Origin: a virus
Lineage: Duplodnaviria; Heunggongvirae; Uroviricota; Caudoviricetes
Reading direction: 5' to 3' (one strand)
Virus record (IMG/VR): IMGVR_UViG_2529292906_000009
Coordinates: 3,303-67,302 of that record
DNA length: 64,000 nucleotides
The translations under genes and the position numbers were made by a program. The notes below the pieces were generated by a model. The model saw nothing but the letters and a program-made list of their open reading frames with translations. It was not told the DNA's origin and made no database searches. Of this stretch, positions 1 through 49,181 are shown in pieces; the stretch's first letter is position 1; each line of letters begins with the position of its first letter.

Positions 1-963
1 AGAAGGGCCACCGACGGCTGTTTGCCTTTCCTCATCATCGGTATTGGTCTTAGGAGCACGCAGATCGGCTTTGATTTGCTCCAGCATCAGGGGCGGCACT
101 TTTCCGCCATGCGCCTCGATGAATTCAGCTGCTTCCAGCACTGACCAGTTATTTTCACGCTTTCGTTCGTATGCCAGCTTAACAATGCCAGCTTGCCCCA
201 TAGATAAAGCGTGCTTTTCCGCCTCCCGGCTTTCTTTTCGATAGTTATTCCGGATGCTGTAAATGGTGTTGATCAGGCTGCTTATCTGCGCGGAACAGCT
301 GTTTAGCATGCTCGCGATACGATATTCAGGCGGAGTCCCTTCATCATCGTCTTTTTGCTGATCGCGCATTTCCTGCACCAGACGAATACACGTATCCCTG
401 GCGTTCTCCAGCATAAGGAGATGAGAAAGAGACTTTTCCAGAAGAGTGGTTTCCAGAACATCGGCCCCGGACCGACGCAACATAGCGCGCGCGGCCTTCC
501 GCGCTTCAACGTTATCTATCAGGTAATCGCCAGCTTCGAATTCAAAGCGTTCACCATCATCATCCAGGGTGTCGCGTTCCAGGCGATCACGTAAGGTCCG
601 GTGGGCGCGGGTGATCACGTCATGATCATCAGAACGATCATTTATGCGCTTATTTTGGCGCTTCGCATTCTCGACTGCGGCACTGACAACGGCATTAACC
701 CTTTGTTTTTCCGCTATTTCAGCCGCAATGTGATCACCTGCATGTTGATCATTAGAGTGATCAATGATCATGCTTTTTAGTGGCTTCCTGACTGGCTTAT
801 TTGGCTTGCGGCTGTCCGCTGTCCTGGTGTCTTCTTTGAAGGCACGGAGATAACGACGTGCAGTATTAGGGTTAAGATTAAACTCGGCGGCATACTGTGC
901 GATGGTGTAACCACCATCTCGCGCCAGGCGAGCAAAATTCTTCTTGTGATCGTCCCAGGTCAC
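1..963 (-). CDS. pacA: Terminase small subunit PacA (P1-type), partial: C-terminus lies beyond the window start
   Basis: Open minus-strand frame running off position 1; GTG start at 961-963 preceded by AAGGAAG; N-terminal HTH-like segment ([20 protein letters not shown]); pac hexamer repeats lie inside it; recalled match to P1 PacA N-terminus. Confidence 0.8.
612..770. other. pac DNA-packaging site: seven TGATCA/G hexamers (each with a Dam GATC) in clusters of three (612-640) and four (731-770)
   Basis: Hexamers read directly at 612-617, 623-628, 635-640 (CGATCA), 731-736, 746-751, 758-763, 765-770; 3+4 arrangement matches the described P1 pac site. Confidence 0.75.
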
Positions 964-998
964 TTATGCTTCCTTTCGTAAAAACTCTTTTTGACGCG

Positions 999-1015
999 AG
1001 GGTAACGAAAGTCAC
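999..1015 (-). promoter_or_regulatory. Candidate late promoter for pacA (GTGACTT-N4-TACCCT on minus strand)
   Basis: Between lpa stop and pacA start; same TGACT(T/A)-N4-TANNNT architecture recurs upstream of three other late operons in this window. Confidence 0.4.
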
Positions 1016-1048
1016 ATGTCAAAAGGCCCGGAACGGGCAAGCAATCAA

Positions 1049-1501
1049 TCAGATACGTGCGGATGTGGCATTACCGTAATGACGGTGCTGACGGGCCACC
1101 TTATTGAAAAGTTGACGCGCCATTACCCAAGGCTGGTGCTCCCGGCGTTCCTTTTCGTCCTGCGTCATATAGAGTTCGTTCTGGAGTTTTTCATCAAACC
1201 GGCGCGGAGCGCGGCTACGGCGAAAGAATTCAGGATTCAGAGAGTGGATCTGAAATCTACGTGGGCGTGTACTGTCATCAATCAAAACAGACGAATACTT
1301 AGACACAGCGATAGCCTTTAAGCGCAGATAAACATCGCGCTTATCGACATCCAGATGCGGGTATTCCTTTTCAAGAATTGCTGCGAGTTCTTTCGCTGAT
1401 AGAAGAGATTTAGTGCGGATCATGTAATCCGCAATCTCGTACGATGTTATTCGTGAGTGATTTATTTCCATGAAGTGGCGTCCCTGCCAGTTAAGTAACA
1501 T
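1049..1501 (-). CDS. lpa: Late promoter activator Lpa-like protein (150 aa)
   Basis: Position immediately upstream of pacA as in P1; size about 150 aa; RBS AGGTGA before ATG at 1501; C1-operator-like site just upstream. Confidence 0.55.
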   Translation of the reverse strand: MLLNWQGRHFMEINHSRITSYEIADYMIRTKSLLSAKELAAILEKEYPHLDVDKRDVYLRLKAIAVSKYSSVLIDDSTRPRRFQIHSLNPEFFRRSRAPRRFDEKLQNELYMTQDEKERREHQPWVMARQLFNKVARQHRHYGNATSARI

Positions 1502-1571
1502 CCTGTCACCTACTGATTAGCCCATGTCAACTAATCAACGTGGAATATAATACCCTCGATTAAAGAAATAG

Positions 1572-1588
1572 CAATACATTAGAGCAAT
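1572..1588 (-). promoter_or_regulatory. C1-repressor operator-like 17-mer (14/17 to ATTGCTCTAATAAATTT)
   Basis: caatacattagagcaat read on + strand; sits upstream of lpa, overlapping the stop of the preceding gene. Confidence 0.45.
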
Positions 1589-1589
1589 T

Positions 1590-2633
1590 TTATCTAACGC
1601 TCGACGAGTGACTTGTGATAGCGCCGACTCCAAGCGCGTAATCAAAGAACAATCGTTGATGCATCGCCAGCCTACCGTGCGTCTTCTCCCAATTATCGCG
1701 GTCACGCTCAATATCACGCTGGCATGACTGGCACAGAGGAATAGCATAAATGTCATGCGCGCATAATCGACTATGACGAACGATATAAGGCGTAATGTGA
1801 GCGCCAGCTCCCGCAGCTCCACAGCCACAGCATGGACGGGAAGCCACAAAGTCCATGTACTCGGGCAATTTTAGCGATTGAAGTTTTGGTATTTTGAAAT
1901 GCGCCATACCTGGGTCGGAGTCAACATCCACAGGGCATACTTTTGCACGCATCGGCGCGGCGCGTTCTTCCATCATCTGAACATATGCTGTAGCGCGATC
2001 GTCATACGGGCGAATATCCGCCTCTTTCAGAGGTCCGCTATCCTGCGGAGTAGCCTTCATCTTATTTATTGATATGCGGCAGACTTCTTCCGGCATCAGG
2101 TGCATCATGTTGCGCATGAAAGCCCACCAGCACAGCTCCTGAATACTTAAATCATGGCTATTTGAAAGGCCCATTTCCTGACGGGCGACATCCAGTATCC
2201 AGTTAACGCGATTATTGTGCAGCGTTTCTTTCAGCTCATTAAAACCACGCATCCGGTAATGGTTATCGTGATGCCAGCACAACAACACCGCGCTATTGTC
2301 TCGTTCAGCGTGGACAATATGGTTGTCACACCAACTACGATCTGCGGCCTGGCATTGACCCTCTTTCCTACGCAACCACGCCACCAGCGCGTCAATTCCA
2401 CCAATACGGCGAAACAGTTCATCGCTGTTAAAAAACGGCTGCAACGCCTCATTTGTTGCCATGGTTTGCTCGGTAACAACGAGGCCGTCTTCCATGTGCT
2501 CGATTAACTCACGCGGCACCGGCTCCATGATAAATTTACGGCCAGCCTCCACCAGCTTTCTGACCTCCTGATCCACTTTGAACGTGGCGAGGCCAAGCTC
2601 TTTCTGTACAAAGGGAGTAATTACGGCTTTCAC
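1590..2633 (-). CDS. Hypothetical protein, 347 aa, Cys-rich C-terminus (CCGCG...CxxC, possible zinc-binding/HNH-like); post-doc gene
   Basis: Long ORF in track; C-terminal CxxC pairs; position between doc and lpa. Confidence 0.55.
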
Positions 2634-2660
2634 ATCACACCTTTAATCACTGATTGGGCT

Positions 2661-2840
2661 TTATCTGCTGCCCGGCATTCTCTGTTTAAGCACAACCATT
2701 TCCTGACGGCATAACACAGCAATAGCGGTCCTGACTCCAATTTGCTTACCAACCAGGTATTGCTTTACCTTGCGGCGACTCACGCCATCAAGAAGCATCT
2801 TTAACGCTTCACGGGACAATTTGTTGTATTTGCGTGCCAT
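2661..2840 (-). CDS. Small basic hypothetical protein (post-doc)
   Basis: ORF 2661-2861 in track; start moved to second Met to avoid overlap with doc; weak support. Confidence 0.3.
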   Translation of the reverse strand: MARKYNKLSREALKMLLDGVSRRKVKQYLVGKQIGVRTAIAVLCRQEMVVLKQRMPGSR

Positions 2841-2844
2841 TAAT

Positions 2845-3225
2845 CTACTCCGCAGAACCATACAATCTACGTAACGTGTCGGCGACAGAAGATACAGATA
2901 TCTCGCCAGTCGCAGCGCCTACAGTAAGGTCTGCCAGTTCAGGTGAATCAAATACCTGCACCCCGTTACGGCGTAGAAATAGCAGCGCACTGTTTAGCGC
3001 GGTACGCTTATTGGCATCATTGAATATATGCCCTCTCGCTGTAGCCACCAGGTAGGTGGCGGAGACTTCGAAAAGGTCGGTGATCTCTTCGTAGGCAACT
3101 CTGGCCTGAACTCTCCCGATAATGGCCTCTGCCCTACCCGGATCTGACATTCCCGGCAGGCCGCCGTAGCGGCTTATATTCGCATCATGAAGCGCAATAA
3201 GTTCTTCCGGTGATATATGCCTCAT
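2845..3225 (-). CDS. doc: Doc toxin (Fic/Doc family) of the phd-doc addiction module
   Basis: 126-aa product recalled as identical or near-identical to P1 Doc ([22 protein letters not shown]...); start overlaps phd stop by 1 nt (TAATG). Confidence 0.95.
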
Positions 3226-3446
3226 TATCGGTTAACCAGTTCCTTGTTGGTGGAGTCCAGGGTGTCAAACAGGGATGCAAATTCAGCATCCAGCGCCGCT
3301 TTTTTGTAGGCTTCGAAAGTAGCCTTGCTGACAATTACTGCTGGCTCACGGCCTCTGCGGGTGATTTCAACCTCTTCCCCGGCTTCAACATTGTTGAGCA
3401 CTTCAGAAAGGTTGCCACGCGCGGTACGGAAGTTAATGGATTGCAT
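3225..3446 (-). CDS. phd: Phd antitoxin
   Basis: 73-aa product [32 protein letters not shown]... recalled as P1 Phd; immediately upstream of doc. Confidence 0.95.
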
Positions 3447-3518
3447 AAACACCTCGTGTACTCGTTATGTGTACACAATTATAAACTTCACAGGCATAAA
3501 GCACCAGCACTTTGCAGC

Positions 3519-3908
3519 TTAAATAACCGGACAATCATCAAATTCCCCACTTCGGGCATCATTGATGACATGAGTGATCACACCAAAAACAGCATTACTG
3601 CCCGTGTATCCATCGTCATCTACTGGTAACGCCTCTTTCTTCCCGGTGCTTAAATCCTCCAGGTGCTGGCGCGGATACTTCCTGTATCTCTTTATGCGAT
3701 ATTCACCCTCCATAGCGCACACAAGCAGAGAACCATCAACCGGAGTAAGCGAGGAATCAACCACCAGCAAAGCACCCTGCAATATTCCCTCACGGTGATG
3801 GCTATCAGCTGCCCGCATGAAGTAGGTTGCTGATGGATGCCTGATTAGTTGCTGATCAAGAGAAATTCGGCTTTCAACATAATCCGCCGCAGGAGAAGGG
3901 AAGCCCAT
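3519..3908 (-). CDS. humD: UmuD'-like protein HumD (S24 peptidase fold)
   Basis: GFPSPAADYVE...HPSATYF motif as in UmuD; LexA box directly upstream; P1 order humD-phd-doc. Confidence 0.85.
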   Translation of the reverse strand: MGFPSPAADYVESRISLDQQLIRHPSATYFMRAADSHHREGILQGALLVVDSSLTPVDGSLLVCAMEGEYRIKRYRKYPRQHLEDLSTGKKEALPVDDDGYTGSNAVFGVITHVINDARSGEFDDCPVI

Positions 3909-3927
3909 AGCGTTTTCACCTCAATAA

Positions 3928-3947
3928 TACTGTTCATTTATACAGTA
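3928..3947. promoter_or_regulatory. LexA (SOS) box TACTGTTCATTTATACAGTA
   Basis: CTGT-N8-ACAG palindrome in the divergent region between humD and the rightward ORF at 4083. Confidence 0.8.
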
Positions 3948-4082
3948 TACATTAAAGAGACACCTTTGGTGCAAACGCGTTACGTACATCAACCACCGCT
4001 GATGATTTTGTGCTCTTTGCTACTATTCATCACCAACGGATCAGCGTAACCTCGTTGCCAATCAGTTAATAAGGAATTAGCT

Positions 4083-4667
4083 ATGCCTAATCGCATTCCT
4101 CTCGCTCCTGTATTGCCCAAAAATTTTGACTGCACTCCTAACGAGAAACGCTCTAAAGCTCAGCTGGACGCCTGGTGGGACCATCCATATGGGGTTACAC
4201 AACCTGACGGGAAAATTGTAGTTTATTGTCTGAATGGTGGGGCGTGGGACCGTCCATCCGTGCTTTGTTTGGCAGATAACTATGATGAAGCCTGTGAACT
4301 TGCCGAAAGACAGCAGGCAAGCTGGGTAAAAACACGGTCTGAACCGACATTCATGTTTTCAAAAGAACCGCCATTTATACTGGCGAGGATGCCGCAGCGA
4401 CCGGATCATCAACAAGAAATTGTTGCTGAATTTTCCTCTAGGGATGAGATGAATCTCTTCTCATTAAAGCAGGAAGAAAGGGATCGCGTCGAAGTGTCTC
4501 CAACTCTCGACCACAACCGGATGAACCTGGCCCAACTCGCCTGGTACAGCAAAGAATTAGAGATGTCTATTGCCCGACTTGAAAACGAAAAAGCCGCTAT
4601 CCAAGCCCAGCATGAAGTAGTTCTGAACCGGATTAGAGAAATGCAAAACGATAACAGGGGATTTTGA
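4083..4667 (+). CDS. Hypothetical protein, 194 aa, divergent from humD and probably LexA-regulated (lxr-like position)
   Basis: ORF in track; shares the LexA-box intergenic region with humD. Confidence 0.55.
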   Translation: MPNRIPLAPVLPKNFDCTPNEKRSKAQLDAWWDHPYGVTQPDGKIVVYCLNGGAWDRPSVLCLADNYDEACELAERQQASWVKTRSEPTFMFSKEPPFILARMPQRPDHQQEIVAEFSSRDEMNLFSLKQEERDRVEVSPTLDHNRMNLAQLAWYSKELEMSIARLENEKAAIQAQHEVVLNRIREMQNDNRGF

Positions 4668-5024
4668 ATGGCTAAAATCGAGTACCATCGCGATCGCGGT
4701 AATTACCTGGAAATATACGATCATGAATCTCTTAACGATATCAACGATGCGTTATATGAATACTGTGAAAAAACGAGCATCACAGATGCACCTGATGCAT
4801 TTGTCGAGCTACCGGTATATCTCCGCGACATCTATGCAATACGAACACCGCCCGTATCGGTGATCCACATTGGCTATGTCCGCCTGTCCATCGAAGAAGA
4901 TGAAGATCGTTATATCGTGCGCCACTATACATTGGACAGAAAAGAACTTCCTAATGAATGGAACATGAGTAATTTCTACAACGGTGAATATGGCTTAAAA
5001 TCCACTAATAATTTACGGTCATAA
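4668..5024 (+). CDS. Hypothetical protein, 118 aa
   Basis: ORF in track; start overlaps the stop of the preceding ORF (translational coupling). Confidence 0.5.
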   Translation: MAKIEYHRDRGNYLEIYDHESLNDINDALYEYCEKTSITDAPDAFVELPVYLRDIYAIRTPPVSVIHIGYVRLSIEEDEDRYIVRHYTLDRKELPNEWNMSNFYNGEYGLKSTNNLRS

Positions 5025-5886
5025 TCTATACAGGCATGTATAACAACAACGAGCCTATTAGCTGTCAACAACGTTATTTTCTCAAATAAGAAAAAGCAGA
5101 AAACAAATTGTTTAAGGTCACAAATTGTGGCCTTGATGGAGGAGGGAGGCTTATTGGCTATGGCTAAAAATCAAATTAGACACTTCATGTTGCTGTAGCT
5201 CATCAAGATCCGAGGCCACAAAACCTTTTCCGAAAAACTTCACAAGTAACTCACTAGCCGCATCATTGTCACCTATTACACGAAAGTCATACGGCAACGT
5301 CGCAAGTTGACGATGTAATCCTGCTGAGAAAGTCGAATCTAACAGCGACCAGAATTCCCACCGCAGGATAATACTCGCCTCTTAATACTGTATATATGTT
5401 GTTACGATATGTTTTTCTGTCTCTAAAAAAAGATGTTAATAGAATGCTAACCATTGAAGGGGATAAAAATATACAATTCCAACAAACGTTATTTTTAACA
5501 ATTTTTTTCTTTGCGTTGACTTTCCCGGACACCTTGTCTGACCGAAGGTGCGCGAAAGCCACTTTTTCCTTCCTGAGTTATCCACAAAGTTATGCACTTG
5601 CAAGAGGGCCATTTTCTACATATTGTGGTGGCTAACAGATGAAATGAATGTAGATTAATTGAAGATAAGGAGAAAATTTGAGATGCAATCATGACGTTAA
5701 TAGATAGGGTCTGCATTACAGACCCCATCCGCATCAAGGAATTAGCCGTTCCCTGATGTTGTTCCGAAAACATGTGCCGTAAGCTCACGTTAACGACTTT
5801 CTTTCACCGAATCCAACTATATAGGGGTTGGGTTTCTACGTCAACGTGAGCAAGTGCTCCTTTACATTTGACAAGGAACCACCTTA

Positions 5887-6024
5887 ATGACTGCTTTTTT
5901 TCAGTTCCTGAGTGCATTTTTAGATGCGCCTGTTATTAGCCAGATTCTGGCGATCATCCTCATCATCGTTTTGATTTTGCTTTTAAGGTCAGTAAAAAAT
6001 GGAATTATGCACTGGCTTACTTAA
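5887..6024 (+). CDS. Candidate 45-aa hydrophobic peptide (MTAFFQFLSAFLDAPVISQILAIILIIVLILLLRSVKNGIMHWLT)
   Basis: Not in ORF track (below size cut-off); ATG at 5887 with AAGGA 9 nt upstream; single predicted transmembrane helix. Confidence 0.35.
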   Translation: MTAFFQFLSAFLDAPVISQILAIILIIVLILLLRSVKNGIMHWLT

Positions 6025-6098
6025 TGTTCAGTGAAACATTAAAATCTCCTTGATGTGGAAACAATCATTTTCTGTATGTGCTGGTGGGTACCTGTAGT

Positions 6099-6455
6099 TC
6101 AGCTTTCGTTGGCATTTAACTTCGTCTTTGCTTTCTCCACCAGCAACTTCCAGATGCCTATTTCATTAGCAGCCGCCTTGATGGCGGCATAAAAAGCATC
6201 TTGCTGATCGTAACGCTGAATCTGTTTTTTCAGTTTTGCCTCCACCAATTTAATTTCATTACGTGCTTTCTGAAGCCGAAGCGCCGCCCGGTTACGTCTG
6301 TTCTTGTATAGCGCGTTAATCTCTGACAATTGCTTTAATTTACCAGCCTGACTGCGGATTATCGCCTCTCTGACTTCTGCCGTGCGTCTCATCTGATCTC
6401 TTAAGAGTTCACCGTTTTCGATAATTCTTTCAAGGTGTTTGATGTGATCTGCAAC
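6099..6455 (-). CDS. Coiled-coil hypothetical protein whose first four codons are separated from the body by IS2 (native start ATG at 7798-7796)
   Basis: Native reading ATG AGA GTT GC / [IS2] / continues at 6450; track ORF 6099-6482 borrows a start inside IS2. Confidence 0.5.
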   Translation of the reverse strand, partial: VADHIKHLERIIENGELLRDQMRRTAEVREAIIRSQAGKLKQLSEINALYKNRRNRAALRLQKARNEIKLVEAKLKKQIQRYDQQDAFYAAIKAAANEIGIWKLLVEKAKTKLNANES

Positions 6456-6466
6456 TGGATTTGCCC

Positions 6467-7372
6467 CTATATTTCCAGACATCTGTTATCACTTAACCCA
6501 TTACAAGCCCGCTGCCGCAGATATTCCCGTGGCGAGCGATAACCCAGCGCACTATGCGGATGCCATTCGTTATAATGCTCGAACGCCTCTGCAAGGTTCT
6601 TTGCTGCCGTTAACCCGTCTGGTTTGGGCATGATACTGATGTAGTCACGCTTTATCGTTTTCACGAAGCTCTCTGCTATTCCGTTACTCTCCGGACTCCG
6701 CACCGCCGTGTTCTTCGGTTCAAGTCCCAACATCCGGGCGAACTGGCGTGTTTCATTAGCCCGGTAGCATGAACCATTATCCGTCAGCCACTCCACTGGA
6801 GACGACGGAAGATCGTTGCCGAAGCGGCGTTCCACCGCTCCCAGCATGACGTCCTGTACTGTTTCACTGTTGAAGCCGCCGGTAGTCACCGCCCAGTGCA
6901 GTGCCTCACGATCACAGCAGTCCAGCGCGAACGTGACACGCAGTCTCTCTCCGTTATCACAGCAGAACTCGAACCCGTCAGAGCACCATCGCTGATTGCT
7001 TTCTTTCACGGCCACTCTGCCTGTATGTGCCCGTTTCGATGGCGGTACAGCAGGTTTTCGCTCAAGCAACAGCGCATTCTGGCGCATGATCCGGTAAACA
7101 CGTTTGGCATTGATCGCAGGCATACCATCAAGTTCTGCCTGTCTGCGAAGCAGCGCCCATACCCGACGATAACCATACGTGGGCAGCTCTCCGATAACAT
7201 GGTGTATACGGAGAAGCACATCCGTATCATCAGTGTGACGACTGCGGCGGCTATCCATCCAGTCATCGGTTCGTCTGAGAATGACGTGCAACTGCGCACG
7301 CGACACCCGGAGACAACGGCTGACTAAGCTTACTCCCCATCCCCGGGCAATAAGGGCGCGTGCGCTATCCAC
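6467..7372 (-). CDS. insD: IS2 transposase InsD (OrfB, DDE)
   Basis: 301-aa ORF recalled as IS2 InsD; overlaps insC in the -1 frame. Confidence 0.9.
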
Positions 7373-7695
7373 TTTTTTGCCCGTCCATATTCAACGGCTT
7401 CTTTGAGGAGTTCATTTTCCATCGTTTTCTTGCCGAGCAGGCGCTGGAGTTCTTTAATCTGCTTCATGGCGGCAACAAGTTCAGAGGCAGGAACAACCTG
7501 TTCTCCGGCGGCGACAGCGGTAAGACTTCCTTCCTGGTATTGCTTACGCCAGAGAAATAACTGGCTGGCTGCTACACCATGTTGCCGGGCAACGAGAGAG
7601 ACCGTCATCCCCGGTTCAAAGCTCTGCTGAACAATTGCGATCTTTTCCTGTGTGGTACGCCGTCTGCGTTTCTCCGGCCCTAAGACATCAATCAT
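7330..7695 (-). CDS. insC: IS2 InsC (OrfA, HTH)
   Basis: [26 protein letters not shown]... recalled as IS2 InsC, 121 aa. Confidence 0.9.
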
Positions 7696-7793
7696 CTGTT
7701 CTCCAATGACTAGTCTAAAAACTAGTATTAAGACTATCACTTATTTAAGTGATACTGGTTGTCTGGAGATTCAGGGGGCCAGTCTAGCAACTC

Positions 7794-8471
7794 TCATACT
7801 TCACCCTCGCTTGTATCGCCAGCATCCACCAGCGGCAATAAAGCCCTGGCCATCTTATGAACCAATAGTGCATCAATAATGCCAAGCGTATGCCCCGGCT
7901 TAATGTTTAATGCCGCCTCAAGGTGACACCTTTCCAAGCCACTTTTCTCGGCTTGTTTATGATGATCTGGCGTAATAACGTCGCCCAAAACACGGCTAAT
8001 TCTTTCTCGTAATTGCTGGGTGCCCGCACACTTGATCGCTGTATCGTGGAGACGGTTAACCAGTTCGCGATAAACATGCGGTTTAATGCGGATACGTTCA
8101 CCGGTGACGCCCTTTCCTGGCCCTGGCACCGAACTATCCGGAATATCCGGATAGTTGCCAGCCTCGTAAGCTACCCGCAGCCAGTGCATGAATGTTTCCG
8201 CAGACACACAACCGCAGTCCACATCGATTTCCCCGCGTTGCTGCTCCAGCCATTGCTCAAAATCTAACTTGTAAGCATCACTTCCAAGTTGCTCTTTTTG
8301 TCTCAATGTCAGCACCTGTTGGGCTAGTTCCAGAACGATACCGGGTGACGCTAACCTCTCAAATTCCAATAAATAGTTTGCGTCTGGATGACAAGTAGCT
8401 TCCCCTGCAAAAAATACCAGTTGCTGTAAGTATGCTGTCGTTATTGCGGTCATAACTTTATCTCCTTGCAT
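7794..8471 (-). CDS. Hypothetical protein, 225 aa
   Basis: ORF in track; stop overlaps native start of the IS2-interrupted gene. Confidence 0.55.
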   Translation of the reverse strand: MQGDKVMTAITTAYLQQLVFFAGEATCHPDANYLLEFERLASPGIVLELAQQVLTLRQKEQLGSDAYKLDFEQWLEQQRGEIDVDCGCVSAETFMHWLRVAYEAGNYPDIPDSSVPGPGKGVTGERIRIKPHVYRELVNRLHDTAIKCAGTQQLRERISRVLGDVITPDHHKQAEKSGLERCHLEAALNIKPGHTLGIIDALLVHKMARALLPLVDAGDTSEGEV

Positions 8472-8680
8472 GGTTCGCCTTTACGGCAAACAGCTACACG
8501 GTCATTTCTTACATTAACCACAGTCACCGTTCCGTCATCGCATTGAATAACGATGAAAGGGTGTTCATTCTCTTTTGTGCAATGTTGCTGTTCCCCTGCT
8601 GTAACAGTGAGGGGAATTAATAAAATAATAATTACTGCGAATTTACTAAATGTTGTCATAGCAATCTTTCTGTTTTTCAT
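8450..8680 (-). CDS. Small secreted Cys-containing protein, 76 aa (N-terminal signal peptide)
   Basis: MKNRKIAMTTFSKFAVIIILLIPLTVTAGE signal-like N-terminus. Confidence 0.5.
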   Translation of the reverse strand: MKNRKIAMTTFSKFAVIIILLIPLTVTAGEQQHCTKENEHPFIVIQCDDGTVTVVNVRNDRVAVCRKGEPCKEIKL

Positions 8681-8973
8681 TATGGTTGAATCCAGTTATC
8701 TTCAATAGCAATGCTCAATCTTTGTAACCATTCTGCTAATTTCAGCATTGCTTCTCTTTCGCTTAAACCACACGGAAAATCATCAAGCGATATTGTTGGC
8801 TTGAAGTTTCCCAAATTATCCATTTCAACGGTCAGATTTTGCTCCAGCACGGTATTCCTTACGCGGCTATTGTGCCGAAGCAAATATACTGAACGTGATT
8901 TATTGGTTTTGTGGTCGAACGTATATTCGGTAAGTATCATCTGGCTTCCGCCATGATTATTACCGCGCCACAT
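8680..8973 (-). CDS. Hypothetical protein, 97 aa
   Basis: ORF in track within a tightly packed minus-strand operon. Confidence 0.45.
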   Translation of the reverse strand: MWRGNNHGGSQMILTEYTFDHKTNKSRSVYLLRHNSRVRNTVLEQNLTVEMDNLGNFKPTISLDDFPCGLSEREAMLKLAEWLQRLSIAIEDNWIQP

Positions 8974-9319
8974 AATTACTCCGTGTTAATTTTACTTTTA
9001 TCGCGAACACCTTTACCGGTTTATCGCCGAAGTGGGGATGTGTGATTGTCTTGATTTCATATCCGTCATACGGGACGTTAATTCTGCGGCTGGAGTCGTC
9101 GCGCTTCGGATATCCCTTTGTGATAATCAGGCGGTCATACTTACGGTTAACGAGGCGCTTATTCCAATAGTCATTACACAGGCGATACTCTTCCGTTTTC
9201 TCTCTGCGAATCATGGCATCGAAGTATTCACCTTTGACGGCAAGTTGCAGGTTAGCCACGGTTAACCTCCTGCGGCGGTTCCGGTAGCGGCATCCAGTGA
9301 GTTGCTTGCTCAATACCAT
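8960..9319 (-). CDS. Hypothetical protein, 119 aa, possible ASCH-like fold
   Basis: FDAMIRREKTEEYR resembles the ASCH GxKxxExR motif; weak. Confidence 0.45.
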   Translation of the reverse strand: MVLSKQLTGCRYRNRRRRLTVANLQLAVKGEYFDAMIRREKTEEYRLCNDYWNKRLVNRKYDRLIITKGYPKRDDSSRRINVPYDGYEIKTITHPHFGDKPVKVFAIKVKLTRSNYVAR

Positions 9320-9890
9320 TACCCGGCTTAATCGTTGCTTCTCCTCGCCGAAAGGTGCTTCCGGTATAGCGTGCGGAGCATATTAGCGGCTCAACCAGAT
9401 CGCTATCGAAATTCACCGAAATAAGTACGTTCTGATTCTTTTTCGGCATTCGCTCACTACAGCTTATCCAACCATCCGGAGTTACCGGAGAGTTGCCATT
9501 TACATCGAAGTTTGGCTCTGCGTCCTGAACCAGGAGGATGTAACCATTCTTGGCTGTATCAAGTTCTAACGCCTCGGTGACGGTGCCGAAATAGCGATTA
9601 CCTAAATCAGCATCACAAGTGCTTACATCAATGGAAACTTCCATGCCTTCGATTAATTCTGGCAAGTTGTAAGTTTGGCTTACAGGCTCTGCTTCCAGCG
9701 ATGCCAGCACAATTCGTGCCAACTCACGCACAACTTCAGGGGGCGCGTGACGGTCATTCAGGTCATCCCACAGACGTAGCATGTTATCGCTACCAGGGTG
9801 AACATCCTCATTAGTTCCGGCCAGCGCACTAATAACCTCATCGGCTGCTTCAATAATTTTCTGTGCCTGTTCTCTGGTAATAGTGGTCAT
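9252..9890 (-). CDS. DUF551-like phage protein, 212 aa
   Basis: C-terminal WMPLPEPP motif typical of DUF551 prophage proteins. Confidence 0.6.
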   Translation of the reverse strand: MTTITREQAQKIIEAADEVISALAGTNEDVHPGSDNMLRLWDDLNDRHAPPEVVRELARIVLASLEAEPVSQTYNLPELIEGMEVSIDVSTCDADLGNRYFGTVTEALELDTAKNGYILLVQDAEPNFDVNGNSPVTPDGWISCSERMPKKNQNVLISVNFDSDLVEPLICSARYTGSTFRRGEATIKPGNGIEQATHWMPLPEPPQEVNRG

Positions 9891-10096
9891 TTGTTAATCC
9901 TCAAAACTTTATGCCCGGGCGCAAAAGCACGTGTTTTGTCTTTACTTATTCGCCACCCGTCTTTACGGGCCTCTTTTGCACAACCAGACCATGACGTACC
10001 GATATACTCACCGAAGTCTGGCACTGGATATACACCTTCCGTACACTGGCGGCAGTCACAATAGAGATGCATGGTGTAACTTGCAGCGATAGCCAT
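9887..10096 (-). CDS. Small Cys-rich protein (start set at internal Met)
   Basis: Track ORF 9887-10177 overlaps upstream gene; internal ATG at 10096 removes the overlap. Confidence 0.35.
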   Translation of the reverse strand: MAIAASYTMHLYCDCRQCTEGVYPVPDFGEYIGTSWSGCAKEARKDGWRISKDKTRAFAPGHKVLRINK

Positions 10097-10097
10097 A

Positions 10098-10688
10098 TCA
10101 CTCTCCTTTGATGCGAATGCCAGGGGCGCGTGGCACATTAACTTCCACGATGCGCACAGTTGGTTTGTACATCTCAATCGCAGTCAGCCAGTCAGCGCCA
10201 GTCATGCGCTTTTCTGCATCGCCATTAGTCCACTTAACCGGTACACCAATAGCCTTCATCGCGATTTCTATTTCCCCGGCAATGGCGCTTTTTCCGCAAC
10301 CAGTAAAACCAGATACAACGACCAGAACTTCACCTTTGGCTGGTTTTATTTCCCGCGCTTCCAGTTCTGCTATGCGCTTACTTCCATCCGAGATAACACC
10401 TTCGTAATACTCACGCTGCTCGTTGAGTTTTGATTTTGCTTCCTCAAGCTCAACTCTCAGCTTCCCTACCGTTAGCGCAATATCCTCGTTCTCCTGGTCG
10501 CGGGATTTGATGTATTGCTGGTTCCTTTCCCGTTCATCCAGTAGTGCCAGCACGGTTTCTGGCGAAAAGTGCTTCATAAAATCGTTAAGCGCATTAATTC
10601 GCTGATCGAAAGGCATTACAGGTGCTTCACCAGCAATTTTTGTTTTTTCAGCGATTTCACGAAGCTTTTGATAATCAATCTTGCTCAC
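10098..10688 (-). CDS. Ea22-like coiled-coil protein, 196 aa
   Basis: N-terminus MSKIDYQKLREIAEK and coiled-coil core resemble lambdoid Ea22/ead family. Confidence 0.55.
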   Translation of the reverse strand: MSKIDYQKLREIAEKTKIAGEAPVMPFDQRINALNDFMKHFSPETVLALLDERERNQQYIKSRDQENEDIALTVGKLRVELEEAKSKLNEQREYYEGVISDGSKRIAELEAREIKPAKGEVLVVVSGFTGCGKSAIAGEIEIAMKAIGVPVKWTNGDAEKRMTGADWLTAIEMYKPTVRIVEVNVPRAPGIRIKGE

Positions 10689-36310: not shown

Positions 36311-36590
36311 CACTTATCCACATTATCCACTGGATAGATCCAATAATCAGGTCCATACAGATCCCAATTAGATCCATATAGATCCCTGATCGTTGCAGGC
36401 CGCGCCACGTCTGGCTTAGAAGTGTATCGCGATGTGTGCTGGAGGGAAAACGATGTGTGCTGGAGGGATAAAAATGTGTGCTGACGGGTTGCTAATGTGT
36501 GCTGGCGGGATATAGGATGTGTGCTGACGGGAAAGCCTGGGTAGTTATCACCACTTATAAAAACTATCCACACATTTCGGAAAAAGTAAT
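36305..36590. other. Plasmid replication origin oriR: tandem DnaA boxes, five GATC sites in AGATCC heptamers, incC iterons
   Basis: TTATCCACA/TTATCCACT at 36314-36331; GATC cluster 36335-36395; iterons 36431-36535; DnaA box at 36565-36573. Confidence 0.8.
36431..36535. repeat. incC: five direct iterons (GATGTGTGCTGGAGGGAAA type)
   Basis: Five roughly 19-bp repeats at about 21-bp spacing directly upstream of repA. Confidence 0.85.
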
Positions 36591-48336: not shown

Positions 48337-49181
48337 TCACCCTCTGAATCCTGCCGGTATACCCCATTGTTCGTTATCTTTATTTTTGGCTAAAACCGCA
48401 TTAAGAGCTTCGTTTACCGTCATGCAATGCGGCAGATTATCGAAGTTTGATATCCCGCCAATATCAGGAGAACGCTTGTCCTTCAGGTAAGCATATTTCC
48501 GCGCTGCCGCCTCTACTTTCTGCTTGAACTCATGTTTTTGAGCGCGTTTTTTGGATAACCGCAGATTGTCAGCCTTTGCTTTTGCCTCAGCGATCCATGA
48601 AGTCAATTTTTTGAGTCTGGTCGTTCCGGCACCGCCGGAAACTGATCTTTTTGTTTTTTAACTTGTGACTTCTTATTCTTTATTGCCACGTCATCCTGAC
48701 AGGGGGAGGGGGTATCATTTTGACATGGGGGTGTGGATAAAAAATTAAATAAAGCCAATGTCTTAGCGAGAACAGCTTTAACCTTGGTTGCCGCTGAAGA
48801 GATCTTTAATTTGCTTTCAATCAGCGCATTTTTGGCTTGTTGTGCGAAGGCCAAAAAGGATGGTGTAAACCGGTACAGGTTAGCGCGACGTTCACGGTGA
48901 TCGCCGATAACAATCTCTACAGACAGGATTCCTTTGTTTACAGCTTCACGGAATGCACGAACGACGGTTGATTGGCTATAACCAGTTTCTGCCGCGATCA
49001 GGCGGTGAGGCTTGTGAATGAAGTATTCACTGGTTGTTGCCGCGAGATTTGCACATTGCGACAGGATATGCCAGGCGCTACGGGATAGACCGGAGTGTGT
49101 TACAAAGCAGGCCAATTCATAGCCAGAAAAAGTAAAATCGCTCATCGTTATACAGCTCAGGAAAGTGACTTTAGCCAGCAT
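48337..49181 (-). pseudogene. repL: RepL-like lytic replication gene, apparently split into 192- and 89-codon ORFs at a T6/A6 run (48607-48612)
   Basis: Two abutting ORFs; downstream one starts at a TTG inside the homopolymer with no RBS; combined length about 281 codons as recalled for P1 RepL. Confidence 0.4.

Follow-up and report, generated by a model that had tools for sequence, protein, structure and literature searches.

The IMG/VR virus record IMGVR_UViG_2529292906_000009 contains a plasmid prophage of the P1/P7 family, and the 64,000-nucleotide (nt) stretch of it that was analyzed here (the window, to which all coordinates refer unless another record is named) includes a gap between recognizable genes at 5025-6098. 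The right half of this gap, 5572-6086, may be a type I toxin–antitoxin-like cassette of a new family, whose promoter with DnaA boxes appears to have been captured from the host nrdAB genes. This is our favored reading of the sequence comparisons and structure models described below, and we hold it tentatively, at a little short of even confidence.

In the proposed cassette, the promoter copied from nrdAB, with two DnaA boxes abutting its −35 element, would fire rightwards and produce an RNA of ~450 nt. This RNA would consist of a long, folded, and conserved leader and, in its 3′ half, an open reading frame (ORF) encoding a single-span membrane peptide of 45 amino acids (aa). In the full-length RNA, the ribosome-binding site of the peptide would pair with an anti-Shine–Dalgarno (anti-SD) element located past the stop codon, and the 5′ end would pair with the 3′ end, so that the primary transcript would be translationally silent. 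A stronger promoter of opposite orientation inside the leader would give rise to a folded RNA of ~110 nt that is complementary to the leader. This antisense RNA would keep the peptide off, either by blocking ribosome loading at a leader ORF or standby site or by triggering cleavage. In E. coli, high DnaA-ATP represses nrdAB, and low DnaA-ATP or DnaA-ADP activates it (PMC8203912). Because the putative mRNA promoter is nrdAB-like, we infer by analogy that DnaA would set its output in the same manner, which would tie the peptide to the replication state of the host.

A wider proposal, possible but more doubtful, is that another killer module, controlled by RNA, accompanies phd-doc in the P1 family; in it, a host nrdAB promoter would drive the toxin, and the decision to make the peptide would be read from DnaA-ATP and replication status. 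The same portable promoter precedes other small cargo in Cyrano-type phage-plasmids.

A conserved cassette with sharp boundaries

A DNA search of ~72,000 plasmids recovered the region in 229 records, which fall into two identity bands only: 95–100%, here called lineage A (P1, P7, and SJ46 types), and 80–82%, lineage B. The two lineages are ~79% identical to each other, and their homology extends from ~5572, just before the DnaA boxes, to ~6086. Directly outside these boundaries (5560-5571 and 6087-6100), identity is 33–36%. The right-hand neighbor is pmgV in lineage A; in lineage B, the cassette lies between hot and a type I restriction–modification gene. Judged by these alignments, 5572-6086 is a self-contained conserved cassette of ~0.5 kb.

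Conservation between the lineages varies along the cassette. The promoter with its DnaA boxes (5572-5626) is 87% identical without indels, and the stretch past the predicted transcription start (5627-5663) is 76% identical and contains a multi-base insertion (~16–19 nt) in lineage B. The leader core (5664-5850) reaches 92% with one 1-nt indel, followed by a stretch proximal to the Shine–Dalgarno (SD) sequence of the peptide (5851-5886; 63%, one 1-nt indel), the 45-aa ORF (5887-6024; 77.5%, no indels), and the 3′ region (6025-6086; 73%, several indels). The initial annotation of this DNA had singled out a DnaA box and the 45-aa ORF. It had missed that these are probably the two ends of one transcription unit, and that conservation peaks in the intervening leader rather than in the ORF. 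It had also not noted the strong promoter and the structured small RNA predicted on the opposite strand.

Among 5426 complete E. coli genomes, 216 (about 4%) carry the cassette, nearly always on plasmids. Distant DNA searches of plasmids and E. coli genomes for a third lineage gave only the 95–100% and 80–82% bands, and viral, metagenome, and representative-genome collections likewise returned the same two lineages and no third. Three genome-contig matches in unrelated metagenome-assembled genomes were discarded as chance, as were the matches of three loci (L062, L064, and L065) to a degenerate peptide pattern. Self-BLAST found no paralogue of the cassette within the window. A separate contig, IMGVR_UViG_2778261537_000017 (4365-10440), follows window positions 1-5616 at 99% and then continues into chromosomal nrdA from inside the promoter homology. 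This junction occurs in none of the 5426 complete E. coli genomes, and the record is probably an assembly chimera across a 64-bp identical stretch, or else the product of a rare plasmid–chromosome recombination.

A promoter region shared with E. coli nrdAB

The plus strand of 5485-5623 is homologous to the nrdAB promoter region of E. coli K-12 (NC_000913.3, 2344608-2344748), with 132 of 142 aligned positions upstream of nrdA identical (93%); the match stops at the −10 element. A motif scan places DnaA box 1 (TTATCCACA), which matches the consensus perfectly, at 5578-5586. The perfect box had been noticed in the initial annotation, although 3 nt off, at 5575-5583. By alignment, the imperfect DnaA box 2 (TTATGCACT) occupies 5590-5598 and overlaps the −35 element by one base. 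Homology to PnrdAB defines a promoter core at 5598-5626, which comprises the −35 TTGCAA (5598-5603), a 17-bp spacer, and the −10 TATTGT (5621-5626), with a predicted rightward start at ~5632-5636. The two hexamers match the consensus at 8 of 12 positions, and the promoter was not listed by a consensus promoter scan.

This promoter thus shares with its E. coli counterpart both DnaA boxes, the −35 TTGCAA, and the 17-bp spacing, but differs in its −10 sequence (TATTGT versus TATCTT in E. coli) and in its downstream cargo. The homology ends at −10, and the phage copy is without the nrdA leader and the NrdR box. A search with an NrdR consensus located the E. coli box (L004, 773-788) beyond the end of the homology and found none in the cassette. 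When E. coli, the window, P1, lineage B, and phage Cyrano are aligned together, the flanks diverge, whereas the DnaA boxes and the −35 stay almost unchanged; Cyrano has one A/G change between the boxes.

The window contains three perfect DnaA boxes, compared with 0.62 expected by chance, and 4 of 100 shuffled sequences reach this number. The other two, at 36314-36322 and 48732-48740, are located in the plasmid origin oriR/incC and inside repL, and the DnaA site at oriR/incC is annotated in P1 and P7 as well. Given this count and the positions of the other two boxes, a chance origin is unlikely for any of them.

The host-like character of the promoter has been recorded before. GenBank entry M95666 (P1, from work on phd-doc) annotates an ‘nrdA-like promoter’ and a ‘dnaA box’ at the promoter region, and according to the P1 genome record NC_005856, a 56-bp segment shares 94% identity with an E. 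coli region that has two predicted DnaA boxes. By this homology, the DnaA box belongs to a promoter of host origin, whose annotation dates back to 1993 and 2004. P1 records already include this box, the nrdA-like promoter, and the prediction of a minus-strand promoter described below. The K-12 gene ypaB (b4605; L004, 595-738), P1 upfO, and P7 upf91.6 (window 5436-5612) comprise the same nrdA-upstream DNA, read on the strand opposite the promoter. It appears that a single piece of promoter DNA underlies all three annotations, which then provide no independent evidence for a protein.

The promoter core with its DnaA boxes is also found beside humD in Cyrano (OV696614.1, 2437-3240) and 13 similar viral contigs, where it is followed by different cargo. 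The Cyrano locus has a strong bidirectional terminator ~85 nt downstream of the promoter core (around 2776-2800), which gives a sub-threshold AgrB-like Rfam match on the minus strand (27.6 bits), and it carries two copies of a 16-nt direct repeat, TAAGTATCTGGCGACT. It further contains a 27-aa ORF, MVNLLFKIVPPMFAIIKAIIEYVNQRP (3101-3184), with its own SD and terminator, for which no Pfam or NCBIfam family was found. This ORF locus may be another small-peptide cassette of the same hot spot. Rfam searches of the Cyrano and lineage B loci returned only sub-threshold matches, to AgrB and RNAI, both of them in Cyrano.

A strong putative minus-strand promoter and a predicted antisense RNA

The only strong consensus promoter of the region is located on the minus strand inside the leader, at 5816-5844. 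It was identified by the promoter scan as a sigma-70 promoter (TTGACG, 17 bp, TATAGT) that matches the consensus at 10 of 12 positions, it corresponds to the predicted ‘PupfN’ of P1, and both hexamers are invariant in all aligned copies. By consensus, therefore, the putative mRNA promoter ranks as weak (8/12) and the antisense promoter as strong (10/12).

Folding predicts that a 112-nt cis-antisense RNA from this promoter (5697-5808, minus strand) consists of a 12-nt 5′ tail and three stem-loops. Its minimum free energy is −43.8 kcal/mol (z −6.3) in the window and −37.5 kcal/mol (z −4.1) in lineage B. The same stretch read on the plus strand gives −30.2 and −24.5 kcal/mol, respectively, so that the minus strand is ~13 kcal/mol more stable in both lineages. 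The predicted RNA is complementary to the whole leader stretch from about 79 to 190 nt upstream of the peptide start codon. There, it spans a leader ORF of 21 codons and most of one of 9 codons, and leaves uncovered their SD, AAGGAG (5667-5672).

A conserved leader and folds of the plus-strand RNA

The promoter, the pairing of the 5′ and 3′ ends, and the limits of conservation together predict a peptide mRNA of ~450 nt (5634-6080, plus strand). Its conserved leader core (5664-5850) carries the strong SD AAGGAG and several mini-ORFs: one of 9 aa with a TTG start (5678-5707) and two with ATG starts that are open in both lineages, of 21 aa (5691-5756) and 25 aa (5772-5849). AAGGAG also precedes another ATG, but the frame it opens closes after 3 codons in lineage A and at once in lineage B.

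Consensus folding of the plus strand yielded a series of structures along the RNA. Two hairpins are predicted in the leader (5707-5725 and 5732-5758), the first of which shows a compensatory U-A to C-G change between the lineages. Just upstream of the peptide SD lies a large stem-loop (5779-5865) formed by CTCACGTT/AACGTGAG and GAATCCAAC/GTTGGGTTTC; its apical helix contains three G-U pairs and would consequently be much weaker on the minus strand. Past the ORF, a post-stop hairpin (6023-6040) with a compensatory change in lineage B precedes the conserved anti-SD TCCTTG (6047-6052), which is predicted to pair with CAAGGA at 5872-5877. Finally, the 5′ end of the mRNA (5635-5651) has a predicted pairing partner in a 3′ element (6061-6075). 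The fold of 5634-6078 has a z score of −2.9, that of its lineage B homologue −3.4, and both single-sequence folds close the 5′ end onto 6061-6075. In lineage B, the 5′–3′ duplex comprises 14 contiguous pairs with −20.8 kcal/mol, compared with −11.4 kcal/mol for the next best partner. Among the 99 predicted pairs, 2 are changed on both sides and 14 on one side with pairing kept, and essentially none are broken.

The 45-aa ORF

The peptide ORF (MTAFFQFLSAFLDAPVISQILAIILIIVLILLLRSVKNGIMHWLT; 5887-6024, plus strand) lies where the initial annotation had placed it. Its SD, AAGGA in lineage A and GAGGA in lineage B, is located at 5873-5877, 9 nt before the ATG in the window (8–9 nt among the copies compared). 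The encoded peptide (mean Kyte–Doolittle score 1.6–1.7) appears to comprise a single hydrophobic span and, at its C terminus, a basic tail. All five other frames across the ORF contain stops. The 45 codons are intact in 77 of 77 complete copies, which represent six variants; the SD is kept, and no copy has an indel in the ORF. Lineages A and B share 27 of 45 residues, and 34 of 45 are similar. The intact copies, the lack of indels, the SD, and the matching anti-SD make it likely, from sequence, that this ORF codes for a protein.

In some plasmids, the NCBI Prokaryotic Genome Annotation Pipeline (PGAP) calls the peptide as hypothetical protein WP_000123562.1; in P1 and P7, it is unannotated. 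No family was found for it in Pfam, NCBIfam, PHROGs, or PADLOC, and an exhaustive HMMER search of 1.84 billion representative proteins yielded nothing beyond copies of lineages A and B with altered C termini. Four public gene calls (P0001-P0004) are peptide copies with frameshifted or truncated C-terminal tails, one of which diverges past residue 31. Such tail-altered copies could be sequencing errors or naturally inactivated alleles.

The genes previously annotated here lie on the other strand. The minus-strand ORFs upfM and upfN of P1, and upf91.3 and upf91.4 of P7, are not kept open in lineage B, which holds only 31-aa and 28-aa fragments versus the 97-aa (Upf91.4/upfN-type) and 37-aa (upfM) ORFs of the window; 1-nt indels separate the lineages at ~5757 and ~5877. 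We therefore rejected these ORFs as real genes, as their frames are broken in lineage B. The P1/P7 annotation (upfM, upfN, and upfO; upf91.3-91.7) already contains the DnaA box, the nrdA-like promoter, and ‘PupfN’, the elements used here, but it relies on minus-strand ORFs that, where checked, are not kept in the 79% lineage, and it is missing the plus-strand 45-aa ORF.

Evidence against the toxin–antitoxin reading and alternative explanations

Several observations weigh against a type I toxin–antitoxin cassette. A literature search found no transcript, translation, or toxicity data, and the P1 RNA-seq papers searched did not mention the region; within the same search, which did not cover the P1 genome paper, no type I system, small RNA, or transcripts were described at the locus. 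The peptide matches no known toxin family in Pfam or NCBIfam, and an Rfam E-value scan of window positions 3000-9000 found no RNA family. Constraint on the protein appears weak, with a ratio of nonsynonymous to synonymous substitution rates (dN/dS) of 0.45 and 11, 8, and 12 differences at the first, second, and third codon positions. When random substitutions of the observed number and kind were simulated, the frame stayed open in 44% of cases and the observed BLOSUM score was reached in 6.5% (p about 0.07). No obvious terminator was found for the mRNA, and no clean U-tail terminator past the antisense RNA, which leaves its 3′ end uncertain. The 5′–3′ pairing is strong in lineage B only; in the window and in P1, it is the second and third best option, respectively. 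Covariation has low power here, with two independent lineages and a structure derived from the same alignment, and the covariation in our model is supportive rather than decisive. Finally, CRISPR interference knockdown of upfN and upfO (upfM untested) and a cited deletion survey of upfM, upfN, and upfO indicate that the locus is dispensable for lytic growth (PMC10695390), which is compatible with the model but lends a function no support.

Alternatively, the same anatomy could serve a non-toxic small membrane protein. Such a protein might, for example, act in exclusion or modulate a membrane protein of the host; the nrdAB-like promoter would drive it, and the folded leader and the cis-antisense RNA would adjust its level. 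This explanation relies on the same features as our model without assuming toxicity; the peptide has no toxin family match and is slightly longer than many enterobacterial type I toxins. We nevertheless consider it unlikely, because a weak mRNA promoter combined with a strong antisense promoter, SD sequestration, and 5′–3′ closure is typical of tightly silenced genes such as hok, tisB, and aapA1, and because the cassette is located in an accessory hot spot beside phd-doc.

It is less likely still that the locus acts through RNA only, with the minus-strand small RNA (5808 to ~5697) or the plus-strand leader regulating phage or host targets and the ORF being incidental. The best conserved part of the cassette is indeed the antisense promoter with the first 45 nt of the antisense RNA, with 2 differences in 87 nt (5764-5850), and the stability of the minus-strand fold (z −6.3) and the weak constraint on the ORF (p about 0.07) point in the same direction. 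Against this stands the ORF itself, which is intact in 77 of 77 copies without indels, although its flanks have several, and whose SD is kept or improved. Moreover, the post-stop anti-SD is conserved, and conservation continues to 6086, well past the small RNA.

We regard as improbable that the cassette is a functionless remnant, whose DnaA boxes and ORF were left over in a recombination hot spot and hitch-hike there. The setting would suit such an origin: the left part of the gap is wreckage that tolerates an IS903 insertion in P7, P1-like plasmids are known to vary in this interval (PMC9603915), and, as stated above, it is not needed for lytic growth (PMC10695390). A remnant would not readily explain why sharp boundaries are kept in two lineages with different neighbors, why the cassette is found in 216 of 5426 complete E. 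coli genomes, why the leader is 92% identical compared with 33–36% just outside the cassette, or why the substitutions keep base pairing.

Hardly any weight falls on a role of the DnaA boxes at the level of DNA, where they could, for example, titrate DnaA or assist replication or partition of the plasmid prophage. In favor of such a role, the window has its remaining two perfect boxes in oriR and inside repL. Against it, the boxes of the cassette travel with the −35 and −10 of a known promoter in exactly preserved geometry, Cyrano-type phages carry different cargo behind this promoter core, and no iterons or AT-rich unwinding element were noted alongside on reading the sequence.

Genomic setting and the decayed left part of the gap

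The gap extends from the stop of a homologue of Upf93.6 (4668-5024, plus strand) to the stop of a pmgV homologue (6099-6482, minus strand), and its longest ORFs encode 97, 91, and 58 aa on the minus strand and 79 aa on the plus strand. A gap of ~1 kb without a normal-sized ORF, as initially described, is therefore real, but its AT-richness is only mild, with a GC content of 0.38–0.41 versus 0.44–0.49 in flanking phage genes and 0.54–0.57 in the insertion sequence IS2. To its left lie homologues of P7 Upf94.2 (lxr-like) and Upf93.6 (4083-5024, plus strand) and, on the minus strand, doc (2845-3225), phd (3225-3452), and humD (3519-3908). The cassette is located in an accessory hot spot, ~2 kb from the phd-doc addiction genes. 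To its right, IS2 (about 6457-7782) is inserted at the pmgU/pmgV junction and cuts the pmgV homologue at its 5′ end, in agreement with the initial report of an interrupted gene next to the gap. The element is flanked on both sides by 9 bp that match P1 (L001, 3901-3909), and the pmgV frame runs on into the IS2 end, which results in a 127-aa ORF (6099-6482, minus strand). Plasmid pQ502 (NZ_CP127257.1) is without IS2 and shows 100% identity in those right-hand stretches of the gap that were compared (5560-6100).

Comparison with the same interval in P1 and P7, proposed in the initial annotation as a check, showed that P7 and the Salmonella phage SJ46 match the whole interval at ~98%. P1 matches from 5548 rightwards (97.7%) but not leftwards, where it has the hot gene instead.

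The left part of the gap, 5025-5400, is by homology decayed DNA outside the cassette. A tblastn search identified a pseudogene fragment on the minus strand (5154-5351), which corresponds to the C-terminal 66 residues of a 174-aa Toprim/primase-like protein. It shares 57 of 66 residues with the intact PhiR41_1 protein XSB42472.1 (E 6e-37) and matches phrog_17952, ‘DNA primase’, in PHROGs (E 2.4e-26). In P7, IS903 is annotated as inserted inside this fragment, at about window position 5288. Alignment with the PhiR41_1 region downstream of the primase-like gene begins at 5098-5134 (minus strand). This segment contains a hairpin, AAGGTCAC-AAATT-GTGGCCTT (5114-5134), followed by a U-rich run on the minus strand, which is probably the old terminator of the primase-like gene. 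Farther right, alignment with Cyrano revealed a scar of a second humD 5′ end with half a LexA box (5361-5400, minus strand). Relative to the humD-proximal sequence of Cyrano, a 13-bp deletion removes the start codon and an 11-bp deletion affects the LexA box.

The three roles initially offered for the gap each fit one part of it: a remnant describes the left 375 bp, a regulatory region the DnaA-box promoter, and a small-protein locus the ORF with its conserved ribosome-binding site.

Implications

P1 is among the most studied phages and a model plasmid prophage, and phd-doc is its known addiction system. If the toxin–antitoxin reading is correct, P1-family elements (~4% of complete E. coli genomes) would carry an overlooked RNA-regulated membrane toxin, and a single peptide gene on the plus strand together with a gene for a small RNA would take the place of upfM, upfN, and upfO, three ‘unknown protein’ genes of the reference annotation. 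A DnaA input, acting through a captured nrdAB promoter, would also be new for type I toxins, beside the LexA-controlled examples. If it is not correct, the DnaA box is still explained as part of a host-derived promoter, and half of the gap is still identified as gene wreckage.

Comparison with known type I systems

In overall layout, the cassette resembles hok/sok of plasmid R1 and the other loci of the hok family. In hok/sok, an mRNA of ~400–450 nt contains the toxin ORF in its 3′ half, an antisense promoter in the 5′ leader, and a leader ORF with a strong SD; the mRNA undergoes 5′–3′ pairing and SD sequestration, the mRNA promoter is weak and the antisense promoter strong, and the module resides on a low-copy plasmid. 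The cassette has a predicted mRNA of similar size, the ORF in the 3′ half, a putative antisense promoter in the leader, leader ORFs with a strong SD, predicted closure and SD sequestration, and a low-copy plasmid host. It differs from hok/sok in its unrelated peptide, with no Hok/Gef match in Pfam or NCBIfam (E up to 10 or 0.1) and no Sok in Rfam, in its longer putative antisense RNA (~110 nt) with three hairpins, and in the DnaA boxes of its mRNA promoter. In addition, the leader ORFs of the cassette end at 5707, 5756, and 5849, more than 35 nt before the start of the peptide ORF at 5887, which makes translational coupling of the mok type impossible.

The ldr/rdl systems likewise have the antisense gene in the 5′ untranslated region: rdlD lies 49–112 nt upstream of ldrD in K-12, and the predicted RNA of the cassette 79–190 nt upstream of its ORF. 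A comparison with the confirmed K-12 Ldr sequences also revealed a short motif in common, L-x-A-P-V-I-x-x-I-L-A, which surrounds a proline of the hydrophobic span (shuffle p 0.005–0.14). The peptide of the cassette is longer, with 45 aa versus 35 aa. Membership in the Ldr family was rejected, as three peptide variants gave no match to Pfam PF13940 (Ldr_toxin; E up to 10) versus 6.5e-27 for the LdrD control. The ldrD locus has no DNA similarity to the cassette, and the Rfam scan contained no rdlD.

In its presumed control, the cassette is reminiscent of tisB/istR-1 and dinQ/agrB, type I systems with stress-driven toxin promoters. In these systems, the toxin promoter is wired to a host regulator of DNA status and the antisense target lies far upstream of the toxin SD, as in standby-site control. 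The cassette would likewise have a promoter of the DNA-status type, and its predicted antisense target is far upstream of the SD. The peptides are unrelated, and the putative antisense RNA of the cassette overlaps its target fully in cis, whereas istR-1 and agrB are divergent with a short complementary patch. The regulator differs as well: LexA controls tisB and dinQ, whereas the cassette would respond to DnaA through its nrdAB-type promoter.

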